This document shows, piece by piece, positions 3,438 through 5,836 of a stretch of 64,000 bases of DNA. The position numbers were made by a program, and so were the translations under genes. How positions within the stretch are numbered: the first letter of the stretch is position 1; every line of letters starts with the position of its first letter. The notes beneath the pieces are model-generated. The model worked only from the letters and a program-made list of their open reading frames with translations, ran no database searches and was not told where the DNA came from. The stretch is from an uncultured Clostridia bacterium (GTDB taxonomy: Bacteria; Bacillota; Clostridia; TANB77; CAG-508): contig CAKPNJ010000006.1 of the NCBI GenBank assembly GCA_934168365.1, positions 937 to 64,936 of the forward strand, given 5' to 3'.

Positions 3438-3755
3438 CTAATCCTCCTCAACATCTTTTAAAAAGGTTTTGTTTTTGAAAGCTCCCTTTCTATTTCTCTT
3501 TTTGATTCTAACTTGTTCCACTTCTTCCATACTTGTACCTCTATATTCAAGTATTGCATAAATAACTTCCATTACATCTGCCATTTCTTCAACGCTATAA
3601 TCAGCTAAATATTCTTCTACTTCTTCTTTTAATTTTTTGTCTAATTCTTCTCCATATCTTTTATCGTCTAAGATTTCATATGTTACTTTGCAACCTTTAT
3701 CTTCCATTATTTTTACATTGTTATCTCTAATTAACTTATTATATGTATATAGCAT
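3438..3755 (-). CDS. MazG-like / PRA-PH-like all-alpha nucleoside triphosphate pyrophosphohydrolase
   Basis: 105 aa; YNKLIRD...EEVEEYL...EEMADVMEVIYAI pattern of house-cleaning NTP-PPases. Confidence 0.7.
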   Translation of the reverse strand: MLYTYNKLIRDNNVKIMEDKGCKVTYEILDDKRYGEELDKKLKEEVEEYLADYSVEEMADVMEVIYAILEYRGTSMEEVEQVRIKKRNRKGAFKNKTFLKDVEED

Positions 3756-4852
3756 TAATTTTCCTCCTTTACTATTTGATTTATTTTTGAAATTATTTCG
3801 TTCATTTTATCTCTATCCATATTTTCCATTAAGGATAAAGCAACTATCTTGCTAAACAATTTATGACTATTAGGTGTTTTCATTCTATCATAACTAACTA
3901 AGTTTTTACAATACTCTTGTATTACTTTCCTTTCATTCGCAGGAATTAATCCGAAAGTTCCTGTACTGTTTATTACTCTATTTTTATTTAATTTCTTTGC
4001 AATATCTAGACCTTTATCATGTAAAAAAATTGGTGAAAAATAATTAGAATTCTCATTGTCGTAATAATTGTATATGTTTACTCCTGTTATATTTTTAATT
4101 TGTTCATATATATATTTAGTTTGATTTTTTCTAAAATTAATTTTATCTTTTAAATCTTTTAAATTATATATACCTAATAGTGCTTGCATCTCAGTTATTC
4201 TATAATTCCATCCAATTTCAGAGAACGACTTACTTGTGTCTCTTATATTAGTACAATGATTTCTCAATAATCTACATCTTTCAGCTAATTCATCGTCATC
4301 GGTTAATATAAATCCACCTTCACCAGTTGCTAATATTTTACCATTTTTCATACTAAAGCATCCAAATTTCCCAAAAGTTCCCAAATATTTGTTATTCCAC
4401 TTTGAGCCATGAGCTTGACAAGCATCTTCTATAATTTCTATATTATATTCTTTAGCAAAATCAATTAATTTGTCTAAATTATAACTGCACCCCCATAAAT
4501 AAACAGGTATTACTGCTTTTGTTTTATTAGATGCTTTTCTTTTCAGATCATCATAATCAAAATCAATATTATTTTCTTGACAATCAACAAATATAGGTAT
4601 AGCCCTTTGGTACAATATAGGAATAACAGACATTATAACAGCATTAGCAGGTACTAATACTTCATCTCCCTCTTTAATATTCAAAGCTGCTAATGATAAA
4701 TGTATTGCAGATGTACCATTTGCTACAGCTATGGCATTTTTTACTGAAAAGAAATCTTTTAATTTTTCTTCAAAAATTGGAATATATTTATCTGGCTTAC
4801 AAGGATTAAATTCATTTTTTATTAAATTTTCTATATTAATAATATCTTTCAT
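3755..4852 (-). CDS. DegT/DnrJ/EryC1/StrS-family PLP aminotransferase
   Basis: 365 aa; ANGTSAIHL, EDACQAHG, FSMKNGKILATGEGG (Schiff-base Lys region). Confidence 0.85.
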   Translation of the reverse strand: MKDIINIENLIKNEFNPCKPDKYIPIFEEKLKDFFSVKNAIAVANGTSAIHLSLAALNIKEGDEVLVPANAVIMSVIPILYQRAIPIFVDCQENNIDFDYDDLKRKASNKTKAVIPVYLWGCSYNLDKLIDFAKEYNIEIIEDACQAHGSKWNNKYLGTFGKFGCFSMKNGKILATGEGGFILTDDDELAERCRLLRNHCTNIRDTSKSFSEIGWNYRITEMQALLGIYNLKDLKDKINFRKNQTKYIYEQIKNITGVNIYNYYDNENSNYFSPIFLHDKGLDIAKKLNKNRVINSTGTFGLIPANERKVIQEYCKNLVSYDRMKTPNSHKLFSKIVALSLMENMDRDKMNEIISKINQIVKEEN

Positions 4853-4867
4853 AATAGCCTCCTTAAT

Positions 4868-5836
4868 TTACAATATTTCATCAAAAGCCATTAATTGCCA
4901 CATATTTACACAATCCTCTGAAAAATTATGGCATTCTTTTATTTTTAACTTTTTATTAATAAATATATCTTCTAAATTTGAATCAGATAATCTAATTGAT
5001 GTAGTTTCTCTAGGTATCATTTTACTAGATGGGCAAGCATGTATACTACCATCAGGTGTAATAAAAAATAGACTATCTCCAGCAAAGCAATTATTAATAC
5101 AGTTATTATAATGTTTTATTGATTCCAACATTTTTTTAACATAATCTTTATTAGGTAATTTTGTTTTTGAAACATTACTATACATTCTCTGTATTATTTT
5201 TTCTAATTCGATGGCATCATTTTCATCTAAAGTCAATTCTTTATATAATTTTTCGTCTTCATTTAAAAATATAGGTTGAAAAATAAAATAATCAGACTTT
5301 AAATCTGTTACAAATTTATAAGTTTGTTCTAAATCTTTCAAATTCAATTTTGTTAAGACCGTATAAATTCCTATTTTTACATTTGAATTTTCTTTTAAGA
5401 TTTTTATTCCTTTTACAACTCTATCAAAGCCATCATTTGCTGGATATTGTCTATATGTATCATTATATTCTTTTTTATATGAGTCTAAAGAAATTGACAG
5501 TGCATCTACTTTACTCTCTATTATATCTTTATAGCATTTATCTATTAAATAGCCGTTGGTGCATAATATAACTTGGATATTATGTTCTTTAATCTTCTTA
5601 ATTATTTCTAAAGTTTTTATATAATTGGATAAAGGTTCTGCCCCCGCAATAAAAATTCTTTTTACATTATATTTTTCTAACCTTTTTATAAAATCAAAGA
5701 TTATTGCATCATCAATATCTGCATTATTAGCTGTATTTTTATTATTTATAGGATTATTATCTTCTGAAAAGTCCAAATAACAATACTTACAATGAAAACT
5801 ACATTTAGAACTTAAAGCCCATAAAATTGTATTCAT
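4868..5836 (-). CDS. radical SAM enzyme with C-terminal SPASM/twitch-like Cys cluster
   Basis: 322 aa; CSFHCKYC (CxxxCxxC) near the N-terminus; C-terminal CINNCFAGDSLFFITPDGSIHACPS...C......C. Confidence 0.8.
   Translation of the reverse strand: MNTILWALSSKCSFHCKYCYLDFSEDNNPINNKNTANNADIDDAIIFDFIKRLEKYNVKRIFIAGAEPLSNYIKTLEIIKKIKEHNIQVILCTNGYLIDKCYKDIIESKVDALSISLDSYKKEYNDTYRQYPANDGFDRVVKGIKILKENSNVKIGIYTVLTKLNLKDLEQTYKFVTDLKSDYFIFQPIFLNEDEKLYKELTLDENDAIELEKIIQRMYSNVSKTKLPNKDYVKKMLESIKHYNNCINNCFAGDSLFFITPDGSIHACPSSKMIPRETTSIRLSDSNLEDIFINKKLKIKECHNFSEDCVNMWQLMAFDEIL

Follow-up and report, generated by a model that had tools for sequence, protein, structure and literature searches.

Introduction

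In blasticidin S biosynthesis, the radical S-adenosylmethionine (SAM) enzyme BlsE has as its pathway partner BlsH, a DegT-type enzyme dependent on pyridoxal 5'-phosphate (PLP), and in butirosin biosynthesis BtrN and BtrR(S) follow a logic in which an alcohol is converted anaerobically to a ketone and then to an amine. The puromycin pathway carries out C3' oxidation and transamination on a nucleoside triphosphate (NTP) with Pur10 and Pur4, and its Nudix pyrophosphatase Pur7 and monophosphatase Pur3 deal with the toxic aminonucleotide. Here, we analyze a radical-SAM/DegT pair encoded in a 64,000-nucleotide stretch of DNA (the window) from an uncultured Clostridia bacterium (GenBank assembly GCA_934168365.1, contig CAKPNJ010000006.1, positions 937 to 64,936 of the forward strand). 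The pair sits in a cassette with the gene order YhhQ transporter, QueC, purine phosphoribosyltransferase (PRTase), thymidylate-kinase (TMK)-like kinase, radical-SAM enzyme, DegT aminotransferase, a 105-aa protein, a DEDDh exonuclease and a frameshifted gene of the HAD type.

BlsE was earlier called a decarboxylase (PMC3715490) and is reported, in a passage of PMC10267522 that cites Lee et al. (2022), to catalyze radical 1,2-diol dehydration, with the nucleoside cytosylglucuronic acid as its substrate. In tubercidin biosynthesis, the PRTase TubE joins 7-carboxy-7-deazaguanine (CDG) to phosphoribosyl pyrophosphate (PRPP), and the Nudix hydrolase TubG has a tailoring role (PMC6112128).

The cassette resembles a hybrid of BlsE/BlsH or BtrN/BtrR sugar chemistry, of tubercidin/toyocamycin assembly and of the way in which puromycin producers and prokaryotic viperins (pVips) handle toxic NTPs, and is a member of none of these systems. 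The closest structural precedent, BlsE, is thus itself a radical-SAM enzyme with a DegT-type partner in a pathway on a nucleoside. However, BlsE has only 15% identity to the cassette enzyme and matches its sequence profile only in part, its substrate is a hexopyranosyl nucleoside carrying no phosphate, and the bls cluster is devoid of PRTase, kinases, 7-deazapurine genes and exonuclease. The likeness to butirosin biosynthesis lies in a single predicted auxiliary cluster in the radical enzyme, with a C-x17-C spacing like that of BtrN, in the oxidation-transamination logic and in the strong match of BtrR to the DegT protein. The likeness to the puromycin (3'-amino-3'-deoxyadenosine) pathway extends to the accompanying hydrolases, as Nudix and HAD genes are present in 43 and 29, respectively, of the 73 loci that carry a relative of the radical-SAM gene. 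These loci bear labels of the style L001-L076, and all synteny counts below were taken over the 73. Pur10 is NAD-dependent whereas the cassette oxidant would be a radical-SAM enzyme; moreover, the base is probably 7-deazaguanine, PRTase, kinases and exonuclease are added, and peptide-coupling genes are absent. Tubercidin and toyocamycin clusters (TubE/ToyH, QueD/E/C homologues, TubG) similarly place 7-deazaguanine genes beside a PRPP-using PRTase and a Nudix or HAD hydrolase, but they have no radical-SAM/DegT pair, TMK-like kinases or exonuclease, and the cassettes with Pfam-annotated genes contain no GMP-reductase, adenylosuccinate-enzyme or UbiD homologues. Finally, pVips accompanied by nucleotide kinases share the combination of a radical-SAM enzyme with a nucleoside monophosphate (NMP) kinase for a modified NTP, and some loci of the present family likewise lie in defense islands or on mobile elements; the cassette differs in the viperin-model score of its radical enzyme (80.7 bits against a cut-off of 180), the extra auxiliary-cluster domain, the obligatory aminotransferase, the supply of a non-canonical base and the exonuclease.

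A conserved radical-SAM/DegT pair in nucleotide metabolism

With moderate confidence, we favor the reading that the radical-SAM enzyme and the DegT protein tailor the sugar at the core of a cassette that is conserved and horizontally mobile and whose product is an amino-deoxy 7-deazaguanine nucleotide. This reading starts from what was observed on gene identities, conserved catalytic residues, synteny, a gene fusion, fold similarity and mobility. An earlier sequence-only reading of the window had already paired the two proteins (Table 1) and proposed that they aminate a nucleotide sugar, the radical enzyme providing a keto sugar for transamination. That sequence of events is still the best remaining reading, although the chemistry itself is deduced, and the claim that the pair is a functional unit of nucleotide metabolism, as opposed to peptide or NDP-hexose metabolism, is borne out by their adjacency in 69/73 loci and by the nucleotide enzymes that surround them. 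The probable 7-deazaguanine nature of the system, visible in YhhQ, QueC and PRTase upstream and in the QueD and QueE of relatives, had been overlooked, as had the DEDDh exonuclease as an integral and sometimes DegT-fused partner.

The first protein is a member of the radical SAM superfamily, as seen from its Pfam scores (Radical_SAM 78 bits, cut-off 29.5; Fer4_12 45 bits), its invariant cysteine triad and a barrel model that matches many radical-SAM structures. The CX3CX2C motif reads CSFHCKYC (C12/C16/C19), and GAEP corresponds to the GGE motif. Both the CX3CX2C motif and the C-terminal one quoted by the sequence-only reading (C246-x3-C250-FAGD...ITPDG...C268) are present, the latter as C246-INN-C250-FAGDSLFFITPDGSIHA-C268. 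In an alignment of 29 family sequences, C12, C16, C19, C268, C302 and C309 were invariant (29/29) and C250 nearly so (28/29), while C246 was kept in 8/29. The conserved quartet C250/C268/C302/C309, located in a β-hairpin plus helix region of the model, would provide four ligands to one auxiliary [4Fe-4S] cluster and indicates a C-terminal domain of the twitch type instead of the seven-Cys SPASM type. The SPASM label given initially was thus dropped: only four C-terminal cysteines are conserved, and the Pfam SPASM score (17.3 bits, E=0.0059) is below its cut-off of 21.5.

The AlphaFold2 model of this enzyme is confident (predicted local distance difference test score, pLDDT, 93.4; predicted template modeling score 0.92). 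Judged from this model, its closest structural relative is BlsE (7VOB; Z 25.8, 278 residues aligned, root-mean-square deviation 2.8, 15% identity), followed by anSME (Z 22.3), SkfB (21.8), SuiB (21.5), viperin (20.8) and MoaA (20.6), with DesII (18.0), BtrN (12.5), QueE (12.0) and AprD4 (10.3) at lower ranks. Foldseek placed CteB and BlsE on top. The sequence profile found no close match among solved structures, the hits being CteB (E=2.6e-14) and BlsE (E=3e-8, partial, residues 43-135). The particular resemblance to BtrN proposed at first gains no specific support.

Several assignments were tried for the radical enzyme and rejected. Viperin/pVip identity fails on the score for NF038283 given above and on the additional cysteine quartet, since an auxiliary-cluster domain is, to our knowledge, not a viperin feature. 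Models of enzymes that mature ribosomally made peptides with post-translational modifications (RiPPs), namely DynA, PapB and YhhB, scored 60-81 bits against cut-offs of 340-450; the operon contains no small peptide gene, and all its genes were assigned to nucleotide-related or transport roles. Homology to QueE (CDG synthase) and close homology to BtrN-type dehydrogenases were not found, and no precursor peptide gene lies beside that of the enzyme. As a separate observation, the profile of this enzyme also matched proteins of about 1000-2955 aa (P0336, P0340, P0343, P0402 and others) in 2-4 separate stretches of 140-206 bits each, which have the look of tandem radical-SAM domains.

The partner belongs to the DegT_DnrJ_EryC1 family (258 bits, cut-off 19.8). 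Its K172, the last lysine of FSMKNGK, aligned with the equivalent lysine of 7b0m, a sugar aminotransferase in which the motif reads FSFNGNK, and is taken to be the PLP lysine, in agreement with the active site foreseen by the sequence-only reading. This residue is kept in 68/69 cassette homologues, and D143 and Q146 are conserved as well. Retention of the PLP lysine implies that the protein is a transaminase and not a dehydratase of the His type that uses pyridoxamine 5'-phosphate. BtrR (2c7t) was a strong sequence match (E=3.7e-42). The best named relatives were the LegC family (206 bits, cut-off 420) and PseC (191, cut-off 423), together with perosamine-synthase types, and the scores for PseC, LegC, WecE, ArnB and DesI were all below their equivalog cut-offs, so that none of these NDP-hexose aminotransferase names applies.

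The radical-SAM family is rare. A search through 5.8 billion proteins yielded 65 clusters at E<=1e-5, and with the family profile a set of 1.84 billion representative proteins gave 214 matches at E<=1e-30, about 25 of them above 290 bits. Among 185,579 species genomes there were 67 loci, mostly in Streptomyces, Micromonospora, Frankia, Nocardia, Kitasatospora, Amycolatopsis and Actinoplanes, the remaining carriers being a few Clostridia metagenome-assembled genomes (MAGs), one Torokbacteria genome and one Ktedonobacteraceae genome. Partner counts were obtained by tblastn of the cassette proteins against all fetched loci. The DegT gene is directly downstream in 69 of the 73 loci, a pairing that recurs in several phyla and is far beyond chance. 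A TMK-like kinase accompanies it in 71, the exonuclease and the PRTase in 61 each, QueE in 51, QueD in 48, a SAM methyltransferase in 31 and QueC in 11, in addition to the Nudix and HAD genes counted above.

The common actinomycete order is QueD-QueE-PRT-MT-kinase-rSAM-DegT-Exo-kinase (MT, methyltransferase; rSAM, radical SAM), with the Nudix gene on the opposite strand. Clostridia have YhhQ-QueC-PRT-kinase-rSAM-DegT-(105 aa)-Exo, and a minimal six-gene form, as in L073, consists of PRT-MT-kinase-rSAM-DegT-Exo. In L075 (3297-4976), inside a PRT-MT-kinase-rSAM cassette, DegT and the RNase_T exonuclease are fused into one protein of 559 aa, and in L072 and L076 a nucleoside diphosphate kinase (NDK) gene stands between them. 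Locus L018 has additional GT4, PIG-L, WbqC, GTP cyclohydrolase I and phosphoenolpyruvate (PEP)-utilizing kinase genes.

Several variants are recorded here as side observations. Across the 73 loci, QueC (present, among others, in the Clostridia loci and a few actinomycetes) and the class-I SAM methyltransferase are mutually exclusive; it is pure speculation that they represent alternative maskings of the CDG 7-carboxylate, as nitrile or as methyl ester. In some actinomycete versions, L002 (13687-14646) and also L023, L025 and L029, there is an added gene resembling that for SAICAR (succinylaminoimidazole carboxamide ribonucleotide) synthetase, PurC, along with an Rv2466c-like thiol reductase and a HAD protein. 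By analogy with the conversion of carboxyaminoimidazole ribonucleotide to SAICAR, the PurC-like ligase could act on a CDG ribonucleotide and turn its 7-carboxylate into an amide. The low-GC metagenomic versions (L072 5354-5950 and 13580-16848; L076 11815-12753) have more nucleotide-handling genes around the cassette, including a Nuc_deoxyrib_tr family protein, FolE2, CYTH, HD and HAD proteins, a second small radical-SAM protein, a PEP-utilizers domain and APH.

Proposed pathway and alternative explanations

In the scheme that we infer for substrate, order of steps, aminated carbon, chain termination and self-protection, a 7-deazaguanine base would be imported by YhhQ, or built by QueD/QueE in relatives, and at the window locus QueC would turn it into preQ0. 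The 6-oxopurine-type PRTase would couple the base to PRPP, forming the 5'-monophosphate, an expectation founded on the precedent of TubE with CDG. The TMK-like kinase would then phosphorylate the monophosphate, helped in relatives by a second kinase or NDK; the presence of such dedicated kinases implies that the unnatural nucleotide must reach the di- or triphosphate. The radical enzyme would abstract a ribose hydrogen to produce a keto sugar, a role that falls to it because DegT needs a ketone and no other conserved candidate could make one. This could occur by two-electron oxidation of the BtrN/anSME type, resulting in a 3'-keto (or 2'-keto) ribonucleotide, or by 1,2-diol dehydration of the BlsE type, resulting in a 2'-deoxy-3'-keto nucleotide by ribonucleotide reductase chemistry. 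Transamination of the ketone by DegT would yield a 3'-amino-3'-deoxy or 3'-amino-2',3'-dideoxy nucleotide as a blocker of polymerase extension; nucleotides of both kinds are polymerase chain terminators. The DnaQ-like exonuclease and the NTP pyrophosphatase (MazG-like), Nudix and HAD enzymes may shield the producing cell or turn the product into a nucleoside fit for export.

Some of the evidence weighs against this scheme. The modeled fold cannot separate oxidation from dehydration, the identity to BlsE being low and anSME, SkfB, SuiB and viperin ranking only a few Z units behind it. The window encodes neither QueD nor QueE anywhere along its length. In addition, the PRTase is missing in 12 loci, and those of the L015 type (with an AAA_33 kinase, an IMPase-like protein and APH) have neither PRTase nor Que genes, QueD and QueE included; a deazaguanine may not be the base in every case. 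Instead of conferring immunity, the exonuclease could act as an effector or within the pathway. The glycosyltransferases, PIG-L deacetylase, ABC transporters and PEP-utilizing kinases of some Streptomyces variants suggest larger, secreted products, and at the window locus no dedicated exporter is evident and the HAD gene is a pseudogene.

It is possible, if doubtful, that the same biochemistry serves a secreted nucleoside antibiotic, in which case the MazG-like/Nudix and HAD enzymes would dephosphorylate the product before export, and exonuclease and pyrophosphatases would be resistance genes. Antibiotic producers such as Streptomyces and Micromonospora carry the majority of loci, there are variants with GT4 glycosyltransferase, PIG-L, WbqC, APH, ABC transporters and PEP-utilizing kinases, and TubE/TubG of tubercidin as well as Pur7 and Pur3 of puromycin are parallels. 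However, neither an exporter nor a phosphatase is part of the minimal six-gene form, which occurs beside Thoeris-like and BREX systems or in mobile elements, the dedicated kinases and NDK drive toward the triphosphate and not the nucleoside, and the HAD gene of the window is broken. A course in the DesI/DesII direction, where the amine is only an intermediate that the radical enzyme removes to leave a deoxy (cordycepin-like) nucleotide, is improbable: DegT needs a keto substrate that no other conserved oxidoreductase of the cassette would supply, and DesII ranked well under BlsE and anSME in the fold comparison. We also find it very unlikely that the radical enzyme is viperin-like and makes a 3'-deoxy-3',4'-didehydro nucleotide while DegT has an unrelated or regulatory role, given the score far under the viperin cut-off and the four conserved C-terminal cysteines; the near-obligate adjacency and fusion-level linkage of an active-looking DegT would be left unexplained.

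YhhQ, QueC, QueD and QueE are queuosine-pathway genes, and a QueH gene adjoins the cassette in L071, which raises the question of whether the cassette modifies tRNA or DNA through a queuosine/archaeosine or Dpd-like 7-deazaguanine pathway. This appears very improbable, since the cassettes with Pfam-annotated genes contain no transglycosylase of the TGT/DpdA type and the PRTase and NMP kinases indicate free nucleotides. Furthermore, a scan of IMG/VR viral contigs, among which DNA deazaguanine pathways are frequent, gave no relatives of the radical enzyme, so that the cassette is not a phage DNA-modification module, and an Rfam search of window positions 1-12000 gave no riboswitches, including preQ1. 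Finally, we give almost no credence to an ordinary pair made of an NDP-hexose aminotransferase and a SPASM peptide or sulfatase maturase, or to a RiPP system. The LegC, PseC and perosamine-synthase types among the best named DegT relatives and the weak DynA, PapB and anSME model matches of the radical enzyme speak for it, but all scores for named families are far under their cut-offs, genes for a precursor peptide, a sulfatase, a glycosyltransferase or a nucleotidyltransferase are missing from the window cassette, and the conserved partners are all nucleotide enzymes.

As to where an amino-deoxy 7-deazaguanine nucleotide would act, the cassette adjoins BREX genes in L001, lies in L073 on a conjugative element, next to a Thoeris-like system of ThsA plus multi-TIR type, and is located within an integrative element in L003. 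These neighbors and mobile elements, together with the kinases and NDK, would fit an intracellular, possibly antiviral, role of a triphosphate, just as the mainly actinomycete carriers and the variants with glycosyltransferases, ABC transporters, APH and PEP-utilizing kinases would fit a secreted antibiotic. Scanning 66 large flanking ORFs with PADLOC and Pfam gave a mixed picture, with a few defense genes and also glycosyltransferases, ABC transporters and PEP-utilizing kinases. The PADLOC 2023 defense-system models gave no system match, only hits at sub-family level (pVip for the radical enzyme, generic QueC, PRTase and DEDDh). A more specific version, unlikely as a whole, is that of a mobile anti-phage or interbacterial cassette producing 3'-amino-2',3'-dideoxy-7-deazaguanosine triphosphate through RNR (ribonucleotide reductase)-like 2'-dehydration and DegT, with the DNA terminator being excised by the DnaQ-like protein as a trans-acting proofreader for host immunity.

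Full-text literature searching found no description of the cassette, and a 2026 genome-mining preprint on 7-deazapurine clusters makes no mention of DegT, radical SAM or exonuclease families. We regard it as an uncharacterized family of nucleoside-analogue pathways in which the radical route is unusual and a proofreader-like exonuclease is an integral component, rare but spread across phyla and on mobile elements. If the proposed scheme is true, it would provide an oxygen-independent enzymatic route to amino-deoxy nucleotides. The 7-deazaguanine nucleotide analogues would in that case form a family whose products and pathway we did not find in the published record. This would be of interest to antiviral and antibiotic discovery, to the enzymatic synthesis of 3'-amino nucleotides and to the study of radical mechanisms, the latter because dehydration of a ribonucleotide diol would have its parallel in ribonucleotide reductase. 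From the DnaQ-like exonuclease, one may suspect a form of resistance in which a terminator is excised by a dedicated proofreader, and we know of no description of this principle for nucleoside-antibiotic producers or defense systems.

Other genes of the cassette

Table 1. Cassette features in the window, with positions counted from its first nucleotide.
Feature	Position	Strand	Size or support
Whole cassette	2117..8441	-	discrete block of ~6.3 kb, operon-like
Promoter-like site TTGAAA-17-TATAAT	8386..8414	-	11/12 matches; ~100 nt upstream of first gene; consensus match only
YhhQ/Vut_1 queuosine-precursor transporter	7618..8286	-	Pfam Vut_1 162 bits; TIGR00697 125 bits (cut-off 51)
QueC (7-cyano-7-deazaguanine synthase)	6997..7602	-	TIGR00364 171 bits (cut-off 150); Pfam QueC 169 bits
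6-oxopurine-type phosphoribosyltransferase	6519..7019	-	Pfam Pribosyltran 67.5 bits
Thymidylate-kinase-like NMP kinase, P-loop	5840..6541	-	Pfam Thymidylate_kin 49 bits
Radical-SAM enzyme with one predicted auxiliary-cluster (twitch-like) C-terminal domain	4868..5836	-	322 aa
DegT/DnrJ/EryC1-family PLP aminotransferase (putative PLP lysine Lys172)	3755..4852	-	365 aa
105-aa protein, possible all-alpha NTP pyrophosphohydrolase (MazG/PRA-PH-like)	3438..3755	-	weak evidence
DEDDh (DnaQ/PolC-proofreader-like) 3'-5' exonuclease	2785..3429	-	Pfam RNase_T 70.6 bits
HAD-like phosphatase/nucleotidase gene, 1-nt insertion, pseudogene	2141..2747	-	two ORFs in different frames, both matching phrog_420

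Among the remaining genes (Table 1), the PRTase found its best NCBIfam matches in xanthine and hypoxanthine-guanine PRTases, all under cut-off. The upstream neighbor that the sequence-only reading had called an NMP kinase is indeed one, in the form of a divergent TMK-like kinase (TIGR00041 56.7 bits, cut-off 83; PDB thymidylate kinases, E=5e-8). As its P-loop, GISGTGKT, starts only near residue 22, the true start may be an internal ATG at about 6505.

The MazG label given to the downstream neighbor of DegT, the 105-aa protein, is unproven. Its Pfam PRA-PH match has E=0.55 and its model (pLDDT 77.8) had no PDB match by Foldseek; the names of close homologues at NCBI (phosphoribosyl-ATP or nucleoside triphosphate pyrophosphohydrolase) and an acidic motif EExxE...EExxD, in which E44, E45, E48, E56, E57 and D60 are invariant, are in its favor. 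The protein occurs in the Clostridia variant only, and the ORFs of about 100 aa that L072 and L076 have at the equivalent position show no homology to it. For the exonuclease, the best NCBIfam match was the PolC exonuclease region, and its catalytic D-E-E-H-D residues are kept in at least 50 of 53 homologues.

The HAD reading frame is interrupted around position 2520 (CCACGGAGC); with one C removed, reading continues as ...MPGAKEVIKLLKENGHK... / ...NIMPGAKEVIKLLKENGHKLIIISSRG. The same layout of two ORFs is found in the cassettes of L004 and L005, so that the frameshift is either inherited or tolerated.

Borders and surroundings of the cassette

The window has a GC content of about 26%, and all long ORFs of its first 8.3 kb are on the minus strand. 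The cassette genes abut or overlap in the style of a single operon. By blastn, the block shares 96% identity over 6326 nt with L004, from an uncultured Clostridium sp. MAG, and the similarity stops at both ends. It is this near-identity between unrelated flanks that defines the cassette as a discrete unit. Identities to L005 and L071 were 90% and 76%, respectively.

The promoter-like site in Table 1 should be read against the finding that the total of such sites across the region was no greater than in shuffled sequence. Between it and yhhQ, the leader of about 100 nt (8287-8386, minus strand) folds into an AU-rich hairpin of 15 bp with a run of U after it (minimum free energy -19.2 kcal/mol, z -3.3), with the look of a terminator or attenuator.

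No att-like repeats were found at the cassette borders, where the repeat search gave AT-rich noise only. About 40 nt past the upstream border there is a tyrosine recombinase (8483-9229, minus strand; Phage_integrase domain, 128 bits). Outside the block on the other side, 288-2033 (minus strand) holds HAM1/RdgB (1458-2033), an MGMT-like ORF (998-1378) and a Tag 3-methyladenine glycosylase (288-842), a nucleotide-sanitizing and DNA repair group that is not in the L004 cassette. The MGMT-like ORF, of 126 aa, is probably truncated, its DNA_binding_1 domain being cut at position 42/81. Upstream of the recombinase, at 9545-10916 (minus strand), two ORFs of 173 aa and 285 aa resemble by eye a sigma factor of the extracytoplasmic function (ECF) type and a zinc-finger anti-sigma factor.

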